64,000 bases of DNA from Planctomycetota bacterium (lineage in GTDB: Bacteria > Planctomycetota > MHYJ01 > JACQXL01 > JACQZI01): positions 108,949-172,948 of the forward strand of contig JACQZI010000005.1 in the NCBI GenBank assembly GCA_016207825.1, given 5' to 3'. Below, one piece after another: positions 5,607-62,048 of this stretch (position 1 is its first letter; each line of letters starts with the position of its first letter). The translations under genes were made by a program, and so were the position numbers. The notes beneath the pieces are model-generated. The model saw only the letters and a program-made list of their open reading frames with translations. It ran no database searches and was not told the DNA's origin.

Positions 5607-7360
5607 GAAACCAAGTTATAAGTTATAAGTTTCAAGTTATTAGGTTGCTCATCCTGTTAGTTCTAGGAATTGCGTTAATAGGCTTAACGGCGCGGGCGAC
5701 CAAGCCAATGGAGATGCCGCCGGATGTGATTATCATCAGGCCTATGGATAAGGCTAACAATCCTTATCAACGGGAATATGATGAAATGCTCAAACCTGTT
5801 GTCATGATTACGGCATTATCAGGCAGAGGAACTGGCGTAATCATTCCAGGTTCATTGGTTCATCAGTCCACCGGCTCATTAGCTAATGAACAATTGAACA
5901 ATTCAACAAATGAACTATACATCTTAACAGCGGCTCATGTAGTCGGGAATTATTCAACAGTTACCGTTACTGTTTACGCTCCTCTTTGTGAACTTAGTGC
6001 CTTTGTGGTGATGACTGATACAAATAAGGATCTTGCGCTTCTTAAAATACGAGATTGCTTCGCTAACGCTCGCAATGACAAAACGGCACGGTTGGCTCCA
6101 AGCGATTATACATATTATCTGTTTACCCCGGTGTATGTTGTCGGATGTTCATTAGGCTTAAATCCCAGGCCATCCTCCGGCATTATCAGTTCCATTAGCG
6201 CCTTTGCTGTGGAGATTACCGCACCTGTATTACCAGGCAACTCAGGAGGTCCCGTCTATGATGCGGGCACGCATGAGTTAATCGGTATAGCCGTTTGGGT
6301 TCGGCTTTACGGAGACCAGCTTATTACCACAATGGCAGGTGTCGTCCCAATCTCGGAAATCTACGTTTTCCTTGAAAGTTACAAGTTACAGGTTACGAGT
6401 TTCGAGTTAGAAGATGAAACTTATAACTTGCAACCTGAAACTTATTTCTTAACTGCCGATGAGCCGGTGATTGGTGATGTACACACTAATCAGGGAGACC
6501 GGCTTGTCAGCCTAACCAAAAGACCCCGCACCGCGATGGGTTCGGGGCTTAGAAGGGAGGTGAATAACATGGGAATCGTATCAAAAGTGGATCTATGGAT
6601 ACCAGCGAACGTGCCACCTTCTCCGGATATGGAACAGAAGTGGAATGACGTTTTGCAGACCGTTGCGACGCTCATTAATGACCGCCGCAATGCCAAGATA
6701 CCCGATGAAGCGGCTTTCCAGAACAAGGTTGTGGAAGCCTCTAATCAGGCATGGGCAAACGTAATCAGCTCTACCTATCGTTCCAAAAGTGGCAAGACCT
6801 ACGACAAGATGAAGAACGCGCATGACGCAAACCTTCAGCAGTCGTATAACCAGTGGAACGAGAAGCTCAACCGGATGTTCGAGTCGGTTGACGGCGTCAC
6901 CGCCAAGCGGTTCAAGGACATAGTTTCTTTTGCCAAGAAATTCTGGACAGAGACCGTCGGCAAGGGCGTCTTAAGGCTGACCGGAGATAAGGTGCGCGGA
7001 CAAGGGGCGGCGACCATTGCGACTTATTGGCTCACAGGCGAGCCGATGGCCGCAGGTATGGTGCGCCCCCAGGATACCGGGATAATCGGTGGTCCGTATC
7101 GGGTTTGCAGGATTGAACTCGTCCAGGCTCTGAAAGCAGCGCTGATGAACAGGCTGGTTCAGGCAGGCATGGTGATTTTCAATTCCCAACTCTCGATGCC
7201 GATAATCACCGAGGAAAACACGACTACCAATACGCTGATACAGGGTTTTATTGACCCGGCGTTAGGATTGGAATCGTTTACTCCCGGCGGCGCGTCTCAC
7301 CTTGACTTTGTCAAGCAGGGCGCGTTACTCAAGCTTTCGCTCCAGGTATCGCAAGTGTAA
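5603..7360 (+). CDS. membrane-anchored trypsin-like (S1 / Trypsin_2-type) serine protease with a ~330-aa C-terminal extension of unknown function
   Basis: ATG 5603 is preceded by GGAAAGAGGTG; the track start 5534 is upstream. N-terminal TM is LLILLVLGIALIGL. Catalytic-triad contexts are LTAAHVV, NKDLALLKI and GNSGGPVY. An in-frame SD plus ATG at 6555-6571 may mark a separate downstream product. Confidence 0.7.
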   Translation: MRNQVISYKFQVIRLLILLVLGIALIGLTARATKPMEMPPDVIIIRPMDKANNPYQREYDEMLKPVVMITALSGRGTGVIIPGSLVHQSTGSLANEQLNNSTNELYILTAAHVVGNYSTVTVTVYAPLCELSAFVVMTDTNKDLALLKIRDCFANARNDKTARLAPSDYTYYLFTPVYVVGCSLGLNPRPSSGIISSISAFAVEITAPVLPGNSGGPVYDAGTHELIGIAVWVRLYGDQLITTMAGVVPISEIYVFLESYKLQVTSFELEDETYNLQPETYFLTADEPVIGDVHTNQGDRLVSLTKRPRTAMGSGLRREVNNMGIVSKVDLWIPANVPPSPDMEQKWNDVLQTVATLINDRRNAKIPDEAAFQNKVVEASNQAWANVISSTYRSKSGKTYDKMKNAHDANLQQSYNQWNEKLNRMFESVDGVTAKRFKDIVSFAKKFWTETVGKGVLRLTGDKVRGQGAATIATYWLTGEPMAAGMVRPQDTGIIGGPYRVCRIELVQALKAALMNRLVQAGMVIFNSQLSMPIITEENTTTNTLIQGFIDPALGLESFTPGGASHLDFVKQGALLKLSLQVSQV

Positions 7361-7473: not shown

Positions 7474-8598
7474 TCACTGCGCGACCAGGATTTTATTCCG
7501 CCCGCTTTCTTTTGCCTGGTAAAGGTATTTGTCCGCTTCGTTTATCATGGACGGCATGCTGTCCAGTTCGCTCGTCCATTTGCAGACCCCGCCGGAAATG
7601 GTCAGCTTGATATGTTCGCTTCCGATATTAAATTCATGCCCTTCAATAATCGCCCTTAACCGCTCGGCAAAGAGATGCGCCGCCCGCGTCCCCACACCGG
7701 GCAACAAGACCGCGAATTCCTCGCCGCCATAGCGCACCGATGTATCAACACCCCTGGCATTGCCTTTAATAATGGAAGCCATTTCCTGCAGTATCTTATC
7801 CCCGGCGCTGTGCCCGTAACAATCGTTGATTTGCTTAAAGTGGTCTATATCCAGTAATACCAAAGATAGCAATCCGCCGTATCTCCTGGTGCGCGCCAGT
7901 TCATCCTCAAATACCTCCTTGAAATAGCGCCGGTTATAAAGGCCGGTCAATTCATCCTTGCCGGCGATTTCCGAAAGGCGCGTATGCCGGCTTTTCAGGT
8001 TGTTAATCAATCTGCAGGAGGCTTCCAATAAATCCGTCTGGGTAACGATGCCGCTCAAGACGCCGTTTTCCATTACCGGCAGCCTTCTGATGTGGTGGCG
8101 GTGCATCAATTCAAGCGCCGCGGAGATGGGCTTATCCGGGCTTGAGAAAATAATATGCTTGCTCATGACCTTGCCCAGTTCGGTGTGGAGGCTGCGCCCG
8201 CTGGCGACCTGCTTGACTATCGTGCTTTCGGAAACGATGCCCACGGGCTTATCCCGGTTGGTGACAACCACGCAACCGATGTGGTTCCGGCGCATCAGGC
8301 AGCAGGCGTCATAAATAGTCTGGTAAGGGGAAAGCGTCAAGACCGCCTTGTTTATATACGGCCTTATCGTTTCCTCTTTCCTGCCTGCGTCGGTGCTTGC
8401 CTGTGTCCCGATGCCTGCCTGTGCTACGGCAGACAGGTCCATCGGGGCAGACAGGCTTCGGCAGGCAGGCCTGCCCGCGGCAACGGTATTGTTTTCGGCC
8501 ATCTGCGTTAATCCAGGCATTTTTCCACCAATCCCATTATGAACTCCGCGTTCGGGGACGGTTTTGGAAATACCTTCCAAAAGAAAAGGATTACGCAT
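7474..8598 (-). CDS. diguanylate cyclase with tandem CBS domains (CBS-CBS-GGDEF)
   Basis: GGDEF domain with active-site RYGGEEF and an I-site-like RGVD five residues upstream. A CBS pair precedes it (IGCVVVTNRDKPVGIVSE..., RRLPVMENGVLSGIVTQTDL). ATG 8596-8598 is preceded by AGGAGGG. Confidence 0.85.
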   Translation of the reverse strand: MRNPFLLEGISKTVPERGVHNGIGGKMPGLTQMAENNTVAAGRPACRSLSAPMDLSAVAQAGIGTQASTDAGRKEETIRPYINKAVLTLSPYQTIYDACCLMRRNHIGCVVVTNRDKPVGIVSESTIVKQVASGRSLHTELGKVMSKHIIFSSPDKPISAALELMHRHHIRRLPVMENGVLSGIVTQTDLLEASCRLINNLKSRHTRLSEIAGKDELTGLYNRRYFKEVFEDELARTRRYGGLLSLVLLDIDHFKQINDCYGHSAGDKILQEMASIIKGNARGVDTSVRYGGEEFAVLLPGVGTRAAHLFAERLRAIIEGHEFNIGSEHIKLTISGGVCKWTSELDSMPSMINEADKYLYQAKESGRNKILVAQ

Positions 8599-13519: not shown

Positions 13520-14539
13520 CTATTTACCTTTCTCGTTAAAAATAGTATTCAAATCCATGCCGAGCGATAAGCCCAGTTCGGCCAGTTTCTTTTTGACTTC
13601 CTTAAGGGAAGTCTTCCCGAAGTTGCGGGTTTTCAAGAGTTCGATTTCCTGCTTGGTGACCAGGTCGCCGATGGTTTGGATTTTACCGTAGGTAAGGCAT
13701 TTGGAAGACCGGACGGATAAATCGAGCTCGCTTACGGGCATGGCAAGCTTTTTCTTCAGTTCACCGCGGTATTCTTCCTTCTTGCGTTCTTCTTCTTCCT
13801 TTTTCTCGTCTATCTGCAATTCGCGCCCGATTTCCCAATACTGGACGAGCGGGTTTATATGTTTCCTGTATATTTTGGATGCCTGGACCAATGCCATTTC
13901 CGGCGTAATCGTGCCGTTCGACCAGATTTCCAAAGTCAGGCGGTCGTAATCGGTCACCTGTCCAACGCGGGTATTTTCCACCTTATAATTAACCTTGCTG
14001 ATAGGGGAAAACACGGTATCAACCGGAACAAAGCCTATTTCCTGTTCGCCTAATTCATTTTCTTCCGCGGTGACATAGCCCCTGCCCCTGCGTATATTAA
14101 GCTCCGCCGTAAAATCACGTTCTTCAACCAGCGTGGCGATGTGGAGATCCGGGTTCATTATTTCCACCATGGAATCCGCTTTGATATCCGCCGCGGTCAC
14201 CGCGCCTTTGCGGCTTTTCACTTCTATCACGAGTTTTCTGGGCTCATCGGAGTTAAGCTTGATAACAAGCCTTTTGATGTTAAGGACGATATCGGTAACA
14301 TCCTCCAAGACGCCTTCAATGGTGGTGAATTCATGGGGAACGTCCTTGATTCTTATCCCGGTAACGGAGGCGCCTTCTATCGAAGAAAGAAGAATACGCC
14401 GTAAACCGTTTCCGATGGTCACGCCGAATCCGCGTTCAAACGGTTCGATAACAAACCGGCCGTAAGTGGCGGAAAGGGTTTTTTCATCGCAGATTACCCG
14501 ATTGGGCAATTCAAATTCACGCCAGCGAGCTCTAATCAT
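13520..14539 (-). CDS. rpoA: DNA-directed RNA polymerase subunit alpha
   Basis: 339 aa with N-terminal FVIEPFERGFGVTIGNGLRRILLSSIEGA and a C-terminal alpha-CTD (LDLSVRSSKCL...). Conserved position. Confidence 0.95.
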   Translation of the reverse strand: MIRARWREFELPNRVICDEKTLSATYGRFVIEPFERGFGVTIGNGLRRILLSSIEGASVTGIRIKDVPHEFTTIEGVLEDVTDIVLNIKRLVIKLNSDEPRKLVIEVKSRKGAVTAADIKADSMVEIMNPDLHIATLVEERDFTAELNIRRGRGYVTAEENELGEQEIGFVPVDTVFSPISKVNYKVENTRVGQVTDYDRLTLEIWSNGTITPEMALVQASKIYRKHINPLVQYWEIGRELQIDEKKEEEERKKEEYRGELKKKLAMPVSELDLSVRSSKCLTYGKIQTIGDLVTKQEIELLKTRNFGKTSLKEVKKKLAELGLSLGMDLNTIFNEKGK

Positions 14540-16274: not shown

Positions 16275-16490
16275 TTATCCTCTGTAAACTATTCTGGCTT
16301 TATTCAAATCATAAGGGGATATTTCCAAAGTCACCCTATCCCCCGGAATAATCTTTATAAAATTCATTCTTAACCTGCCGGCCACATGGGCTAAAACCGT
16401 GTGGCCACCTTTTATTTCCACTTTAAACATTGCATTTGGCAAAGATTCTTTTACGATTCCCTCTGTCTTAATAAAATCTTCTTTTACCAT
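16275..16490 (-). CDS. infA: translation initiation factor IF-1
   Basis: 71 aa S1-like protein: [44 protein letters not shown]. Confidence 0.95.
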
Positions 16491-32420: not shown

Positions 32421-33629
32421 ATGAAAAAGGCTTTTATCTCATGTTTATTCTTACTTCTATTAATTGGTTGCCTGGATATGGATGAACAGGTTGCCTATTT
32501 CTTTTATGACAAGCCAAAGGATGAACTGCATTTGCTTCTTTGTTACAAAGGAATTTATAGCGACAATGATATTTCCGACTCGGGAACACAGATGTCCGGC
32601 TTCTTCAAACCTGACTGGGAAATCGCCTTTGGCGGCTGGTTAGGGCATGTAACAAAAAAAGGAATCCAGGACAATATAGACGATGAAAATTCACCGGAAG
32701 TCGTCAAAAAGTTTGCCGCGTTCTTGCTTAAGAATATAACGGTTACCACCGGAAAGTGTTTCCTGGATGAAGATAAACGACTGAGTTGTTACCAAACCAT
32801 CACCGTAACAAACGCCTCAAAAATCATCGGATTGTTTAACGAAATAACATCTCAAATTATCATAGAACAAACTTATGACGCTAAAAAGCTTTTTAGCGCG
32901 TTGGACAAAAAGAGTATTGATTTGTTTACTGCCGCCGCAAAGGAAAAGCATCAGTGGTTACAATTAGAGGGGCAATCCATCAGGTTTTCATTCCCGATTA
33001 GCGACGAGACTTTTATGAAAGCAAAAGCCGAACTGCTTGAGAAATTAAAGAGTTGCCCGGCAAAAGATTATAAGACAATCACTGCTCTCTTTGCGCTAAA
33101 TGATATTTCTTTTACCAGGGACGGCAACTTTATAACTCTTATCCTGGGCAATAAGGACGTCAATAAAGCCATTCCATTATTGCTAAAGCCTAAACAGGGA
33201 GATTACAAGGATAACATGGTCGAATTTGCCAGAAAAGAATTCGGGATAAACCAGGAAACCACCGAAGAATCAATCGCTGACCAATTCATATCCGGCCTGG
33301 TTGACTCTGAAACGGTAAAGAAAATAGAAGAGTTCATCCGGAAATTAGGGTACGATGATTTTGAGACCAGAGAAAATGCCACTTTAATGTTAATCAAAAT
33401 GGACAGTTTGGCATTATCATGGATAAGAAAAGCATCAAAAAGCGAAGACCCTGAAGTGCGCCTGAGAGCCAAGAAGATATTAGAAGCAATCGCAATTTCC
33501 CCGGAAGAAAAAGAGGAAATAGAAGATAATATTATGACTATCGAATTACCTCCCCCAGAAGAAGATATTGATACGGACCTTCCAAAAGATGTAATAGAAG
33601 ATGACGACCAACCGGAAGGCGATGATTAA
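32421..33629 (+). CDS. hypothetical lipoprotein with C-terminal HEAT-like repeat and acidic tail
   Basis: Lipobox LLLLIGC. HEAT-like FETRENATLMLIKMD...SEDPEVRLRAKKILEAI. The last ~45 aa are very acidic. Confidence 0.6.
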   Translation: MKKAFISCLFLLLLIGCLDMDEQVAYFFYDKPKDELHLLLCYKGIYSDNDISDSGTQMSGFFKPDWEIAFGGWLGHVTKKGIQDNIDDENSPEVVKKFAAFLLKNITVTTGKCFLDEDKRLSCYQTITVTNASKIIGLFNEITSQIIIEQTYDAKKLFSALDKKSIDLFTAAAKEKHQWLQLEGQSIRFSFPISDETFMKAKAELLEKLKSCPAKDYKTITALFALNDISFTRDGNFITLILGNKDVNKAIPLLLKPKQGDYKDNMVEFARKEFGINQETTEESIADQFISGLVDSETVKKIEEFIRKLGYDDFETRENATLMLIKMDSLALSWIRKASKSEDPEVRLRAKKILEAIAISPEEKEEIEDNIMTIELPPPEEDIDTDLPKDVIEDDDQPEGDD

Positions 33630-33656: not shown

Positions 33657-34817
33657 CTAATGCTCTATCACTATCTTCACTATCTCGCACCTGGAAAAGA
33701 GCCGCATCGGCGGTCCCCAAAAACCTGTTCCGGAAGTGGTGTATAGGTGAGAGGAATTTACAGTATAGAATCCACATGGATACTTGAAGTTTAACTGCAC
33801 CAGGATATCCACCGGAGGAATCTGTCCGGCGTGGGTATGTCCCGAAAGCTGGAGATTCACTCCGTTCTTAATCGCTTCATCGAATATATCCGGCTGGTGT
33901 GATAGCAGAATAACGAGCTTGCCTTTGCCTATCACATTCGGTGTCTTAAGCGCGGATGCCAAATCGCAACCGCTTTCTCCGAAACTCTTTCCGGTATTGT
34001 CATCCACCCCGACCAGTTGGATGAAATCATTCAGCTTTACATTATTATTCCGTAAGACGGTGATTCCGGACTCCTTGGCGGCATTCATAAAGGTATCAAT
34101 CCCGGCATAGAAATCGTGGTTGCCTGTAACGGCAAAGACGCCGTATTTCGCGCGTAAACGCCTTAATACGGAGCAGAAATCGGTTCCCCCGCCCGAAGGC
34201 GAGGCTCGCCCTAATGGCGGCTTACATATATCTGAGTCTACCAGGTCGCCGGTAATCACGATTAAATCCGGATTCTGGCGGTTGGTCTCCTCCACTATCC
34301 CTTCCAGCCACGCCTTCGAGCGCAGTTTATGAAGATGCAAATCCGAAAGTTGGACGATGGTAAACGACGGCACGGATTTAGGTAATCTCAATTCGTCTAC
34401 CTTTATATGTATAGTCTTCAGTCTTGGGAAACGGGCGACGTTATAGATGGAATAACTGCCGGTAAGAACCAAGAGAATCAGCGCAGAGATGGTCAGCCAA
34501 TATCTTTGGAGAGGTGAATGCAGGAAAAGCCTGCCGATATCCGCGAGCACCAGAAACGTAAACGCCATGACGACCAACCCGACCCAGATGCTTCCCGCGC
34601 CAAGAACCGCTTTGGCAAGAAAGAAATCCGTCCGACGGCTCAAGACTTCTCCTAAGATAAATAACAGGGTAAAGGCAAGCATGGAAATCTGAAGCGCCCG
34701 GCGGAAGTTACCCGAAAACGTTAACCCGTTTGCCACGCGGGAGTAGGCGAAATAATTCATCCCGAAGAAGATACTTAAGACGATAAGAAGGAACATAACA
34801 AAATATACTCTGGACAT
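33657..34817 (-). CDS. membrane-anchored metallophosphoesterase (calcineurin-like)
   Basis: Motifs QLSDLH, GDLVD, GNHDF and SGHTHAGQ after about four N-terminal TM helices. Start uncertain: ATG at 34815-34817 versus TTG at 34847. Confidence 0.8.
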   Translation of the reverse strand: MSRVYFVMFLLIVLSIFFGMNYFAYSRVANGLTFSGNFRRALQISMLAFTLLFILGEVLSRRTDFFLAKAVLGAGSIWVGLVVMAFTFLVLADIGRLFLHSPLQRYWLTISALILLVLTGSYSIYNVARFPRLKTIHIKVDELRLPKSVPSFTIVQLSDLHLHKLRSKAWLEGIVEETNRQNPDLIVITGDLVDSDICKPPLGRASPSGGGTDFCSVLRRLRAKYGVFAVTGNHDFYAGIDTFMNAAKESGITVLRNNNVKLNDFIQLVGVDDNTGKSFGESGCDLASALKTPNVIGKGKLVILLSHQPDIFDEAIKNGVNLQLSGHTHAGQIPPVDILVQLNFKYPCGFYTVNSSHLYTTSGTGFWGPPMRLFSRCEIVKIVIEH

Positions 34818-34966
34818 ATTTAACAGGAATGATTTTAGAAAAAGCAACCAAGCCGGTCAAACAAATAACAACCACGCAGGCAAAACAGTATTTATAAGGA
34901 GACCGGGAAGGCAGGAGTGTTTTCCGGAAAATGGCATTGGCTCCCCTATACTGTAACGCCCCATAC

Positions 34967-35208
34967 CCTAATAGTATATCCCTGTCATCCTAATACCATT
35001 CCCTATATACCCTAATACCATATCCTATAGTCCCCAATACCATATCCTATAGCCCCTGATAGCATATCCTATAGCCCCTAATGATATACCCTATAGTCTC
35101 TAACAACATACCCTATAGTCCCTAATGGCATATCCTATAGTCCCTAATGGCATACGCTATATATCCTAATACTATTCCCTATAGTTCCTAATACCATACG
35201 CTATATAT
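34967..35208. repeat. array of 11 head-to-tail 22-bp units (consensus CCTAATACCATATCCTATAGTC)
   Basis: Units start at 34967 plus multiples of 22 with no phase slip. Each copy carries several substitutions. A degenerate unit lies upstream (34944-34966). A G-rich inverted copy is at 35250-35276. No ORF spans the array. Confidence 0.9.
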
Positions 35209-35490
35209 GCTAGCCAGTCACTTATAAATTGCGGGTAAAGCAATATTTTGGGGTAGGGGGTATAGGGGGCCAGGGGAATTCTAACGTTAAATTAAGATAC
35301 TGATTTTTAAATATTGCCGCCTAGGCACTAAGGCACAAAGGACGGCAGAGGGGGCTATTTGTTTTAAGGGTTCGGCATGGCGTCACCTGAACGCAGAAAA
35401 GTTATTGGCGAGGCATTTTGGAAAAATCATGTCCCGTAATCCGCTTAAACAGGTTGATAGGAGGCAAGGTGTGCGTCACCGGATAATCTC

Positions 35491-35745
35491 TTATTCCGTC
35501 TCTTCCTCCTGGGACAATTCATATAACGATCCTGACGCAATAAGTTTCCCCTGCTTAACAAGTTCATCCCAGACTTCCTGAGGGAATTGATCCGGAGGTC
35601 TGATGGCGACGATACCAGAAACTTTTCCGCCACTAAAGGCACCTCCCCCCAGACTACTTTCATCGTCTAAGCGCATTATTTTCAAACGTTTCCGAAACGC
35701 TTTCAGGGCTCTTTTAAGTACGACCTTATCAATGGGATCCGTCAT
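35491..35745 (-). CDS. hypothetical small protein (84 aa)
   Basis: GGAGG sits 6 nt before ATG 35743-35745; the track ATG at 35751 abuts the SD. Sequence MTDPIDKVVLKRALKAFRKRLKIMRLDDE...; no family recognised. Confidence 0.5.
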   Translation of the reverse strand: MTDPIDKVVLKRALKAFRKRLKIMRLDDESSLGGGAFSGGKVSGIVAIRPPDQFPQEVWDELVKQGKLIASGSLYELSQEEETE

Positions 35746-35798
35746 TTTCATCCTCCACGTAATTCCGGGGACACCTACTAATTCCTGATAATCAGTAT

Positions 35799-35910
35799 GC
35801 TGTCCCCTACAATAATATAATAGATATGGGCGTCCTCACAGAGGGCTGTCCCCTACAACAATATACCAGATTTGGGCGTCCTCACCGTGAAACGGTGAGG
35901 GCTGCCCCCC
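35799..35910. repeat. two 41-nt direct repeats (46-bp period) each ending in a hairpin, plus a partial third copy
   Basis: GCTGTCCCCTACAAYAATATA..AGATWTGGGCGTCCTCAC at 35799-35839 and 35845-35885. CCTCACCG-TGAA-CGGTGAGG at 35880-35899. GCTGCCCCCC restarts at 35901. Confidence 0.7.
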
Positions 35911-35929: not shown

Positions 35930-36949
35930 TTAAAGTCTCCATGGATATTGCGCTATCATTTGTTTTTTTCTAGTTACAATGGTTTCTTCCGCCCATTTAA
36001 TAGCATTTTCTATAACATTATTAAGACTATCAGTTGTATATTCAAATTCTTTCATAATCGTACTCGTATTTGAAATTCCCGCAGTCATAAAAGTGCTTTT
36101 TTGCCCTTGCTCTCTAAGGATAACTGTAATCCAATCATTATTTTTACAATCATCAAGTTCTCTAAGATGTCCAGACGGAGATGAATCTTCCACTATCACA
36201 AATCGGCTAACCGAACCTATCGTAATAGCTTTTTGCCTGATATCTTGATACAAACTATCTGGAATATCTTTAACAAGAATCGGAGTGTATCTTTTGCTTA
36301 ACGCTGCTGCTATTTCTCTTAACCGTTGTTCTCGTGAATAATCTCCAATAATAAGAATGGTTTCAGCCTTGCGTTGTTTTACAAAATCATCAATGCTTAC
36401 TTGGTACTTCTTGGTTTGTGAAATATCAGTAAGAGCAATAAGAATTTCGTCCTTAGCGCGTGTTATTGCTAATTCTGTAGTCCAAAAGTCTTTCTTCCTG
36501 TTGCCAAAAATCTCGCCTAATGCTATATATCGCTTCCAGTTAAGGGCTTCACAAGTAGTGTTAAATATTCGTATCCTTGCGTTTAAAGATTCTAAACTAA
36601 AAGGATATATATTTTTAAACTGCCCAGAATCAAGAATAATGGTCCCACTACCATAAGCAACTATCCCTCGACTTTTTATATTTCTAATTTGCTTTGTAGT
36701 TTTAAGAAATAAATCTTCTATTCGTGAGCTTCCTCTAACAATTTGGATATCGTTCTTGCCTGGCACGTACTCATACCCAATGCCAAAGTTTGTAGAGAGA
36801 TATCCAATAATATGGGATGGTTGAATAGCGAATGACCATAATTTTGTAACATACTCTTTAGGTAAAAATTTGTTTACGGTTTCTTCTAAAGTCTTATGGT
36901 ATGTCTCTAGATATTGTTTGAATTCTATTTCGCTTACATTTTGACTCAT
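35930..36949 (-). CDS. hypothetical protein (339 aa), AT-rich orphan
   Basis: Long ORF with much lower G+C (about 25-35% by eye) than its flanks. The C-terminal third has a beta-alpha-beta pattern (TILIIGDYSREQRLREIAAALSKRYTPILVKDIP...VSRFVIVEDSSPSGHLREL). No motif I can name confidently. Confidence 0.6.
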   Translation of the reverse strand: MSQNVSEIEFKQYLETYHKTLEETVNKFLPKEYVTKLWSFAIQPSHIIGYLSTNFGIGYEYVPGKNDIQIVRGSSRIEDLFLKTTKQIRNIKSRGIVAYGSGTIILDSGQFKNIYPFSLESLNARIRIFNTTCEALNWKRYIALGEIFGNRKKDFWTTELAITRAKDEILIALTDISQTKKYQVSIDDFVKQRKAETILIIGDYSREQRLREIAAALSKRYTPILVKDIPDSLYQDIRQKAITIGSVSRFVIVEDSSPSGHLRELDDCKNNDWITVILREQGQKSTFMTAGISNTSTIMKEFEYTTDSLNNVIENAIKWAEETIVTRKKQMIAQYPWRL

Positions 36950-60478: not shown

Positions 60479-60544
60479 TTGTCAACTCAAATCTTCCACT
60501 TTGTCAAGTCTTTTCTTCCATTTTGTCAACCCAAATCTTCCGTT
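60479..60544. repeat. three direct 22-bp units each starting TTGTCAA
   Basis: TTGTCAACTCAAATCTTCCACT (60479), TTGTCAAGTCTTTTCTTCCATT (60501) and TTGTCAACCCAAATCTTCCGTT (60523). Confidence 0.85.
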
Positions 60545-60848
60545 TATTCTATAAAACTCAATATAATCAACAACCATCTTCAATATAGTGAGTTTCTTAT
60601 GTGCATTATATTAAAAATGTATCTTTTCATACCCCTCTGTGCCCTCTGTGGTCGTATTTTACCCCAAAAAAGTCGGTTATTTCGGCACGTTTTGCAGATA
60701 AAACCTACTTTTATTACAAGAATCTATTCAATTTTACCCATCAAATGGGCTGATTACGTGTTATATTGAGTATTATACCATAAGAAGTCGGTTATTTCAA
60801 CAATTTCTGCCTATGGGGGTGGGGGTACCCTACCCCTACTCCACCCTA

Positions 60849-61112
60849 ACCATACCTCTACTCCATAGTGACCATTACTATACTCCGGTGTAATCATACC
60901 CCTACTCCCCTGTAATGGCTATAATACTCTGGTCTAACCATACCTCTACTCTATGGTGACCATACAGATACTCCCCTCTAACCATACTCCTATCCCCTTG
61001 GTGCGTAGCCTCCCCTTGGGGATAGCCATATCTATACTCTATAGTAGCCATACCTCTACTCCATGGTGACCATACCTCTACCTAGGTATAATCACACCCC
61101 TACTCCATGATA
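60849..61112. repeat. array of ~12 tandem 22-bp units (consensus ACCATACCTCTACTCCATGGTG)
   Basis: Units start at 60849, 60871, 60893, 60915, 60937, 60959, 60981, (61004, degenerate), 61024, 61046, 61069 and 61091. Two units are 23 bp and the degenerate one is 20 bp. The array is preceded by the palindromic G/C run GGGGGTGGGGGTACCCTACCCCTAC (60815-60839). Confidence 0.9.
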
Positions 61113-61199
61113 GGAATAGATATACTTACAGAGTGGATTACTAACCATCATAGGTAACACTTTGGCTCTGTTCGGAATAGCATTACCAATAACTTCCCA

Positions 61200-62048
61200 T
61201 TATTTTGCCGGTCGGTGGGAGATGATCTCCTTGCAGGCCGTAATAAATTTATCTACCCGCTCCTTTTGCTTTTCATCCTTTAGGTCTTTTTTGAACTTCT
61301 CGCAGTAATTCAGCCAGTTATCCTTGCCCAAGGTTTTCTCCAATATTTCCAGGGCATTTTCATTCCAGATTTTCTCTACTCTTTCTTTATTAAGAGTTGC
61401 GGCATCTATCCCTCGCTCCTCCAGTGTTTTTTTTAGGTATCGGTCGTCTTTATCCGGATAATAATCGATATTTATAGTATTTTTGTCTTCCCCAGTTGCA
61501 AGATAATCTAATATTTTTCGTGCCGATGAATCTCCGGGAATCTTAGATAGGACATATTTAGCCGGATATTTCTCTGAAAGCGAATCGGACCAATCATCCA
61601 AAAGAGGGTAGATTTCCCTATCGTTTTCAAATAGTATGCGTTTTTCCCCGTCCTGATTAAGGGCAAGATAATTAACAAGGATAGAGGAACAAGAATTATC
61701 TCGACTTTCAAAGGCATTTAACAGATAAATCGCTCGTGATGTAGCTTTTACCCAATTGGGCAGTCTTTTATCTCTGGGTGTTTTTACCTGCTCTTCCAAA
61801 AAATCCTTGCATTTTTCGACAATCGAGAATTTAAGATCCGACAAACCAACATCATTCATAAGAAATGCCAGCATATCTGTTTCTTTGATTTCATCCCTGA
61901 GAGACTTTATGTCATTACCAAACTTTTCTTTTTCCTTCATCCATTTGGGGTCTTCTTGCGATTGCCCATCGGCCTTGATAACCGTATAAACTGCGAACGA
62001 GGCTGCCAGAATGCCTAACAATGCCATTGTTTTAAAAATCTTTTGCAT
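61200..62048 (-). CDS. hypothetical secreted protein (282 aa), AT-rich
   Basis: Signal-like MQKIFKTMALLGILAASFAVYTVIKA. Charged, helical-looking remainder. No family recognised. Confidence 0.6.
   Translation of the reverse strand: MQKIFKTMALLGILAASFAVYTVIKADGQSQEDPKWMKEKEKFGNDIKSLRDEIKETDMLAFLMNDVGLSDLKFSIVEKCKDFLEEQVKTPRDKRLPNWVKATSRAIYLLNAFESRDNSCSSILVNYLALNQDGEKRILFENDREIYPLLDDWSDSLSEKYPAKYVLSKIPGDSSARKILDYLATGEDKNTINIDYYPDKDDRYLKKTLEERGIDAATLNKERVEKIWNENALEILEKTLGKDNWLNYCEKFKKDLKDEKQKERVDKFITACKEIISHRPAK

Follow-up and report, generated by a model that had tools for sequence, protein, structure and literature searches.

The 64,000-nucleotide stretch of DNA analysed here (the window, at its full length) comes from contig JACQZI010000005.1 of the Planctomycetota bacterium assembly GCA_016207825.1, where it covers positions 108,949 to 172,948 of the forward strand. 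It contains two arrays of 22-bp tandem repeats, array 1 and array 2, each of which sits between co-directional minus-strand genes. A sequence-only reading of the window had picked out array 1 and had suggested that it was either an iteron- or centromere-like protein-binding array or a protein-sponge RNA of the CsrB/RsmZ type. Our analysis tentatively favors a protein-binding DNA element lying upstream of a promoter, and it brought to light, in related genomes, a set of 21-bp arrays not described before, which precede the members of one conserved gene family. The features around the two window arrays are these:

33657-34818, minus strand: membrane metallophosphoesterase gene, downstream of array 1, with its ATG at 34818
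34832-34860, minus strand: sigma70-like site TTGACC-17-TAAAAT, 10/12 matches (consensus scan)
34920-34931, no strand assigned: perfect 12-bp palindrome TTTTCCGGAAAA, between array 1 and the promoter-like site
34945-34966, minus strand: partial degenerate unit CCTATACTGTAACGCCCCATAC, in phase with array 1 (repeat family D1 starts at 34946)
34967-35208, minus strand: array 1, 11 in-phase 22-bp units, plus strand CCTAATnnnATAYCCTATAGnn, minus-strand (gene-sense) consensus GACTATAGGGTATGGTATTAGG
35250-35276, plus strand: G-run element GGGGTAGGGGGTATAGGGGGCCAGGGG, 41 bp past array 1, which looks like an inverted, G-enriched unit
35491-35751, minus strand: 86-aa open reading frame (ORF) upstream of array 1, with a basic N-terminal helix
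59054-60397, minus strand: AAA_14/DUF4143 ATPase gene, downstream of array 2, matching PADLOC candidate family PDC-S01
60479-60541, minus strand: mini-array of 3 x 22 bp in the leader of the ATPase gene, minus strand GGAAGATTTGRGTTGACAAART
60772-60800, minus strand: strong sigma70-like site TTGAAA-17-TGgTATAAT, 11/12 matches, extended -10 (consensus scan)
60815-60825, plus strand: G5-T-G5 element abutting array 2
60837-61122, minus strand: array 2, 13 unit-lengths of 22 bp, minus-strand consensus GAGGTATGGTTACAATGGAGTA
61200-62048, minus strand: 282-aa ORF upstream of array 2, with a hydrophobic N-terminal segment and no family match

Two phase-locked 22-bp arrays

Read in register, array 1 consists of 11 contiguous 22-bp units without a single phase slip, as had been claimed, and Tandem Repeats Finder (TRF) describes it as period 22, 9.9 copies, 80% matches and 0% indels. 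A scan with the unit pattern CCTAATNNNATAYCCTATAG, allowing up to three mismatches, matched 10 in-phase units where shuffled sequence gave an expectation of 0.33. The majority consensus is CCTAATACCATACCCTATAGTC, which agrees with the consensus given earlier except at one near-tied position; unit 1 (34967) is more degenerate than the one to six differences per copy that had been stated. Unit identity is 73%, with 43 differences from the consensus (20 distinct variants) and 0 indels in 242 bp, and TRF also detected a higher-order periodicity of 44 bp. On the gene-sense (minus) strand the array is rich in G, A and T (30% G, 7% C) and carries 13 GGA in 242 nt; by inspection, a TATAGGA site is found in 5/11 units, the remaining GGA lying at GGGAA, at GGGAT or at unit junctions.

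Array 1 is non-coding: its period is 22, and no ORF of at least 60 aa spans it. The gap that holds it, previously put at 640 bp, measures about 670 bp from the likely ATG (34818) to the upstream ORF's stop codon (35491). We take ATG 34818 to be the true start of the metallophosphoesterase because homology to its relative begins exactly there. The units are contiguous and have no unique spacers between them, in agreement with the earlier statement that this is not a CRISPR. Nor is array 1 a structured RNA. Its folding energy does not depart from that of shuffled sequences (z = -0.09; array 2 gave z = -1.35), no hairpins are found in the array 1 RNA, and the whole gap around it folds worse than shuffled sequence whichever strand is taken (z = +2.2 and +2.3).

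Array 2 bears out the report of a second array of the same period 26 kb away. Its unit, TACTCCnnnGTRACCATACCtc, was matched eight times against 0.10 expected, and the phase is kept through a diverged stretch of 44 bp (60991-61034) within the array. With a unit identity of 56%, it shows 81 differences from its consensus (40 distinct variants) and 0 indels in 286 bp. Its minus strand carries 10 GGA, and short palindromes (for example TATGGTCACCATA) were seen by inspection in three to four of its units. A lag scan of the whole window confined 22-bp periodicity to array 1, array 2 and the mini-array at 60479-60541; other lags from 16 to 30 gave no signal across the window, and lag 15 gave one weak, unrelated signal (0.54) at 1203-1390.

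Both arrays are present in Logan contigs from two sequencing runs with 0 mismatches (array 1 in L001 and L009, array 2 in L014 and L015). Since the two runs independently give both arrays without any difference, mis-assembly is unlikely. Assembly break points do recur at elements adjacent to the arrays (60633-60650; about 35250): contig L009 stops within the G-run element beside array 1, and both contigs with array 2 stop at 60650, beside the 9-bp x 2 repeat CCCTCTGTG.

Promoter-like sites and other elements beside the arrays

Promoter and terminator calls in this work are consensus scans, in a phylum whose promoters are uncharacterized. On the gene-sense strand, array 1 is followed at 106 bp by TTGACC-17-TAAAAT, immediately before the metallophosphoesterase ATG, and array 2 is followed at 36 bp by TTGAAA-17-TGgTATAAT; both sites read away from the arrays. 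The sigma70 consensus scans returned no promoter-like site upstream of array 1 or 2, and those for terminators returned nothing in 34600-35800 around array 1, nothing between either array and its upstream gene and nothing following either array. A second, diverged copy of the array 2 promoter-like segment is found 115 bp further on, at 60667-60695; the direct repeat concerned (29 nt, 79% identical, 60667-60695 and 60782-60810) is thus a duplicated promoter-like segment downstream of array 2. An inverted repeat of 23 nt (60544-60566 and 60761-60783, 87% complementary) ties this promoter-like region to the mini-array, which reads TTGTCAACNCAAATCTTCC on the plus strand and has TTGACAA in every unit on the minus strand. 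On the minus strand the mini-array has upstream of it a promoter-like stretch, TTGTTGATTATATTGAGTTTTATAGAAT, similar to the promoter that precedes the array of a related contig, L008, described below.

The inverted G-rich copy that had been reported about 40 bp beyond array 1 is indeed present, at a distance of 41 bp, and it is the sole canonical G-quadruplex (G4) motif on the plus strand of the window. Paired G5 runs occur on that strand at the two arrays only. A pair of terminal inverted repeats around array 1 resembling those of a miniature inverted-repeat transposable element (20 nt, 75% complementary) was too weak to interpret. Elsewhere in the window, heptamer repeats AAGTTAT x 4 (5613-5640) and AAGTTAC x 5.4 (6376-6413) lie about 760 bp apart.

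Genomic setting and searches for known elements

In its annotated part the window carries chromosomal housekeeping genes. The products of the annotatable ORFs are RibD, a MiaB-like radical-SAM enzyme, a Trk-type channel, a Na/Ca exchanger, an adenylate cyclase-TPR protein and redox enzymes. Over the window the cumulative GC skew runs monotonically, and the nearest named homologues come from metagenome-assembled genomes (MAGs) labeled Planctomycetota or Elusimicrobiota. A tRNA search found none in the window. The ORFs of 86, 339, 402 and 282 aa near the arrays gave nothing informative in Pfam, NCBIfam, PADLOC or PHROGs; the 86-aa ORF has no family match, and a single-sequence structure model of it (predicted local distance difference test, pLDDT, 65) was too weak for use. 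The 339-aa protein (35930-36949, minus strand), which is unrelated to the 282-aa protein, belongs to no Pfam family and has 545 homologous clusters in a representative library; its C-terminal ~150 aa are found again in proteins of other lengths, and a Fic-domain gene follows the 339-aa gene in relatives. The 402-aa ORF (32421-33629, plus strand) lies between the metallophosphoesterase and the Na/Ca exchanger, which are adjacent in L008, so it is a lineage-specific insertion beside the array locus. The ATPase gene is about 440 nt from array 2.

No rep, dnaA, parA, parB or parM is found among the annotated window ORFs, and Pfam and NCBIfam scans that covered the flanking ORFs and 20 further window ORFs gave no Rep or initiator domain. 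The window shows no skew switch (no search was aimed at DnaA boxes or an AT-rich unwinding element). Neither array region had a match among plasmids by blastn, and array 1, compared in the same way with phages, had none there either. Rfam gave no family at the gathering threshold for the window and four loci, and none at E <= 1 for both array regions. Scans of genome and metagenome contig collections with two-unit IUPAC patterns gave one and five chance matches, respectively, none with a related array, and the exact array unit was not found in the genome and metagenome collections scanned. The earlier statement that no described element has this unit therefore agrees with all of the Rfam, plasmid, phage and pattern searches.

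Conservation had also been proposed as a check on array 1, and here the outcome was negative. Orthologous loci were compared in contig L008, from the closest relative available, for the metallophosphoesterase (84% identity) and in L016-L021 for the 339-aa gene (74% and 52% identity). The L008 metallophosphoesterase has a 160-bp upstream gap without a repeat and a different upstream gene, and no array lies near the 339-aa homologues at either level of identity. The nearest relatives thus lack array 1 at the orthologues of either gene that flanks it. Gene order around array 1 differs from that in L008, and the regions of both arrays hold unannotated, variable genes.

Leader arrays of 21 bp in related genomes

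Contig L008 carries an array of its own, elsewhere, consisting of nine units of 21 bp with no indel (unit GATTATAGGGTCAACGCTACG) between a sigma70-like promoter and the Shine-Dalgarno sequence (SD) of a gene for a 227-aa protein. The family of this protein comprises about 50 members, and the sole organism label in any source is Planctomycetota bacterium. Six independent loci were compared, two of them paralogues in one MAG (GCA_043808305.1), with the 21-bp arrays at the following positions:

L008, 10930-11118
L010, 420-625
L011, 7280-7462 (duplicated in L012, 7648-7830)
L013, 9692-9903
L022, 9779-9977
L023, 9791-9984

The layout is the same at 6/6 loci: a promoter-like site, an array of 8.7-10 units that is free of indels at its best period, an SD and the gene for the ~227-aa protein. 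Because the arrays lie between a sigma70-like promoter and an SD at every locus, they are almost certainly transcribed. The genomic neighbors vary from locus to locus, so the array and the gene behave as a single module. Unit sequence also varies between loci; the units are unrelated even in the two paralogues of one MAG, and the L022 unit, ACGAGCCCATCCTGACACGGA, is unrelated to those of the other loci. In five of the six arrays every unit contains a palindrome of 12-16 bp, and these arrays fold far better than shuffled sequences (z = -6.0 to -9.9); the L022 array is non-palindromic and unstructured (z = +0.76). Since the units differ and L022 lacks the palindrome, what is conserved is period, copy number and position, rather than sequence or structure, which points to a constraint on spacing and not on sequence.

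The ~227-aa protein is modeled with confidence (pLDDT 90.6) as three long N-terminal helices and an FN3-like C-terminal beta-sandwich, and the Foldseek matches listed for this model are FN3 domains. It has no Pfam match and no PDB sequence match. The family is basic (pI 9.2-10.1), and no relatives were found among viral contigs. A coding reading of the 21-bp arrays (21 nt being 7 codons) was considered and rejected: the L008 frame has in-frame stops, no SD precedes the arrays, and the order promoter, array, SD, ATG, as judged by inspection, also rules it out. Gene callers did place a 55-aa ORF inside the array of L023 (9821-9988), as they placed a 49-aa ORF within array 2 (L014 4998-5147, corresponding to about 60902-61051 of the window, minus strand); both are probably artefacts of stop-free repeat frames.

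Toxin-antitoxin (TA) genes neighbor the arrays at L008 and L011, and a hairpin lies between array and gene at L011 and L013. In L011 this region (7500-7620) contains the C5/G5 hairpins CCCCC-TTTTGCAAA-GGGGG and CCCCC-TTTATTAA-GGGGG, as well as CCCCCTAACCCCC; the hairpins recall the G5/C5-run elements adjoining both window arrays. Tandem repeats in general appear frequent in the related contigs. L011 has a repeat of 14.5 copies of (TCTGATAA) at 2321-2433, L010 has a 10-bp x 4.9 repeat at 1328-1378 that starts on the final base of the 227-aa gene's stop codon, and L022 has 59-bp and 49-bp repeats at 13682-13816 and 16275-16377.

How the window arrays relate to these leader arrays is a matter of resemblance in period, lineage and orientation, and of one sequence match. 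The minus-strand consensus of array 1 (GACTATAGGGT...) and the L008 unit have 10/11 bases in common over GAYTATAGGGT, and in both the strand is the same when taken relative to the gene downstream; a shuffle test gave p = 0.005, uncorrected for about eight comparisons. No significant match to the relatives' arrays was found for array 2. The window arrays have period 22 and 11 and 13 copies, and the relatives' arrays period 21 and 8.7-10 copies, without indels in either case. The layouts differ, in that the relatives' arrays occupy a transcribed leader downstream of a promoter, whereas the window arrays lie upstream of promoter-like sites.

Discussion

The interpretation that we place first, tentatively and with somewhat less than even confidence, is that array 1 (and array 2) acts as DNA that binds protein in phase with the helix and is placed upstream of a promoter. 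We infer this role as DNA, with a protein on each unit and an effect on the adjacent promoter. Each array would be a maintained non-coding element of 11 (array 2, 13) binding sites, one per two helical turns, that are read by a sequence-specific protein encoded elsewhere in the genome. This protein would coat one face of some 240-290 bp of DNA directly upstream of the promoter, and the coated array would modulate or insulate downstream transcription, of the metallophosphoesterase in the case of array 1 and of the AAA_14 ATPase leader in the case of array 2. The window arrays would be members or descendants of a lineage-specific class of phase-locked arrays with units of 21-22 bp, whose conserved members accompany the basic ~227-aa protein in related uncultivated Planctomycetota.

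Periods of 21 and 22 bp are both near two turns of B-DNA. All eight arrays keep such a period while the unit sequence drifts or is replaced, which suggests that the spacing matters, and the simplest reason for keeping it would be protein assembly along one face of the DNA. That phase is held despite 27-44% divergence between units favors a phased DNA-protein assembly as well. Tandem repeats are intrinsically deletion-prone, and arrays so diverged must therefore have persisted for a long time. Also in favor are the lack of RNA structure, the absence in the scans of an upstream promoter-like site and of a following terminator, the 10/11 match between array 1 and the L008 unit, the basic character of the ~227-aa family, and the unrelated units of the two paralogues, which fit cognate recognition of array by protein. 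We rank the phased DNA array above the other explanations because the position of the window arrays, upstream of promoter-like sites, suits a DNA element better than a leader RNA.

A number of observations weigh against this interpretation. Position-specific constraint within units was looked for and is not significant when shared (inherited) variants are counted once, and array 1, as noted, is missing beside the orthologues of both flanking genes. No array-binding protein was identified in the window, where rep and par genes are lacking among the annotated ORFs, and tblastn of five members of the ~227-aa family against the window gave no homologue (best E = 0.44). Array 1 resembles the relatives' arrays weakly and array 2 not at all, and the leader layout seen in the relatives would fit a role at the RNA level equally well. 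Both promoter calls are consensus matches, with the reservation about this phylum made above, and there is no well-known bacterial precedent for 11-13 sites in a row upstream of a promoter.

A further reading, which we consider unlikely, makes the window arrays members of an undescribed recognition system, in which the ~227-aa protein reads a cognate array of about ten 21-22-nt units and array 1 is a target in trans. The canonical form of the system would be a compact, relocatable promoter-array-gene module, with units diverging between paralogues to prevent cross-talk. Array 1, which on this view has a half-unit in common with the cognate array of L008, would then be a second target, acting in trans as operator or decoy, of the ~227-aa protein that the organism itself encodes, and this protein would control the metallophosphoesterase promoter through it. 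The logic would be like that of type III TA or Rep-iteron pairs, from which the protein fold and the unit size differ. Whatever the standing of array 1, the promoter-array-gene module of the relatives may itself represent an undescribed protein-repeat system.

The arrays might instead work as transcribed repeat RNA, with the minus strand read through from the upstream ORF or forming part of the downstream leader, and with a single copy of an RNA-binding protein on each 22-nt unit; their role would be that of a sponge, an antitoxin-like element or an autoregulatory leader. We regard this as somewhat improbable, though it draws on the relatives, all six of whose 21-nt arrays lie between a sigma70-like promoter and an SD, including the L022 array, which like the window arrays is non-palindromic and unstructured. 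Both window arrays also lie between co-directional genes with no predicted terminator ahead, and their minus strands are unstructured and contain 13 and 10 GGA. However, the promoter-like sites are downstream of the window arrays with none upstream, no partner gene adjoins these arrays, and a sponge RNA has no need of exact spacing. In its CsrB/RsmZ form the idea, which came from the sequence-only reading, is not supported. Array 1 does share with those RNAs a large number of GGA on one strand, but its GGA are outside hairpin loops and not conserved in position, its units are regular tandem copies, neither a promoter nor a terminator brackets it in the consensus scans, there is no CsrB/Rsm match in Rfam even at E <= 1, and csrA, whose presence had been suggested as a check, was not found in the 64-kb window by tblastn. 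The closer parallel is with type III TA loci (ToxI, CptI, TenpI), where a promoter precedes repeats of 31-62 nt in 1.9-5.6 copies directly upstream of the toxin gene (PMC3401426). The relatives' loci resemble these in their succession of promoter, tandem repeats, sometimes a hairpin (L011 and L013) and a protein gene, in their cognate-specific units, in the occurrence of paralogues within one genome, and in the TA genes that are neighbors at L008 and L011. We nonetheless rejected type III TA as an identification of the relatives' arrays: the layout fits, but the units are, with the window arrays included, of 21-22 nt in 9-13 copies, and the partner, helical with an FN3-like domain, is not a ToxN/AbiQ/CptN/TenpN-type endoribonuclease. 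The window arrays are without a partner gene and lie upstream of promoter-like sites, with a conserved metallophosphoesterase and an ATPase downstream.

That the arrays are functionless minisatellites, produced by slippage or unequal crossing-over and possibly representing an orphaned, decaying 21-bp leader array that has not yet been deleted, is also unlikely in our view, yet several of the results favor it: the lack of conservation beside either flanking gene in the nearest relatives, the location in regions of unannotated, variable genes with a gene order unlike that of L008, the higher-order period of 44 bp, such as satellite turnover typically leaves, the distribution of variants, which is even across the unit once each variant is counted a single time, and the other short tandem repeats common in these genomes. 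Bacterial intergenic minisatellites, such as the mycobacterial MIRU-VNTR, are comparable in being lineage-specific, in lying between co-directional genes and in consisting of tandem repeats some tens of bp long. The window units, however, are far more diverged and yet strictly in phase, with 0 indels in 242 and 286 bp against 43 and 81 differences from the consensus, and copy number is identical in both samples. Bacterial genomes have a deletion bias, and persistence to 27-44% unit divergence in spite of it (judged against general indel-to-substitution ratios) argues against inert repeats, as does the presence within 64 kb of two arrays in the same orientation to genes, both of which have a G5-run element and a promoter-like site beside them. 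That the arrays are an origin of replication or a partition centromere, whether the chromosome's own or that of an integrated plasmid, is very improbable. The iteron- or centromere-like reading offered earlier stands in so far as the units are tandem and phased near two helical turns, but it remains an analogy, set against the lack of rep and par genes among the annotated ORFs, the housekeeping character of the annotatable genes nearby and the monotonic GC skew. The R6K gamma origin has seven 22-bp iterons. The chlamydial plasmid origin has four 22-bp repeats (PMC4748734). Such iterons are, like the window arrays, non-coding direct tandem repeats with a unit of about two helical turns, and in both the units are presumed to bind protein; the window arrays differ in being chromosomal, in having 11-13 units rather than 3-7, in occurring as two arrays of different units 26 kb apart on one replicon, and in showing no similarity to plasmid or phage records by blastn. 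Among partition centromeres, R1 parC has ten 11-bp iterons, pSK41 parC has 20-bp repeats and F sopC has twelve 43-bp repeats. Type II and Ib centromeres resemble the window arrays in their roughly ten phased direct repeats beside a promoter, which are coated cooperatively by one small DNA-binding protein, whereas for the window arrays coating is our proposal only; these arrays are not on a plasmid, and no parM, parA or parR was found nearby among the annotated ORFs.

What the arrays mean depends on which of these explanations is right. If they are inert minisatellites, they are a warning that a periodicity of 22 bp does not by itself signify iterons. If they are functional, they would represent a new kind of long, strictly phased cis-element in bacterial chromosomes, in a phylum in which gene regulation is almost unexplored. 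The 21-nt array and its gene family may matter more than the window arrays themselves, since the module they form is a testable candidate for a new kind of protein-repeat recognition, whether it works by autoregulation, as an RNA antitoxin or through a DNA binder that forms filaments, and it could supply orthogonal protein-array pairs as tools.

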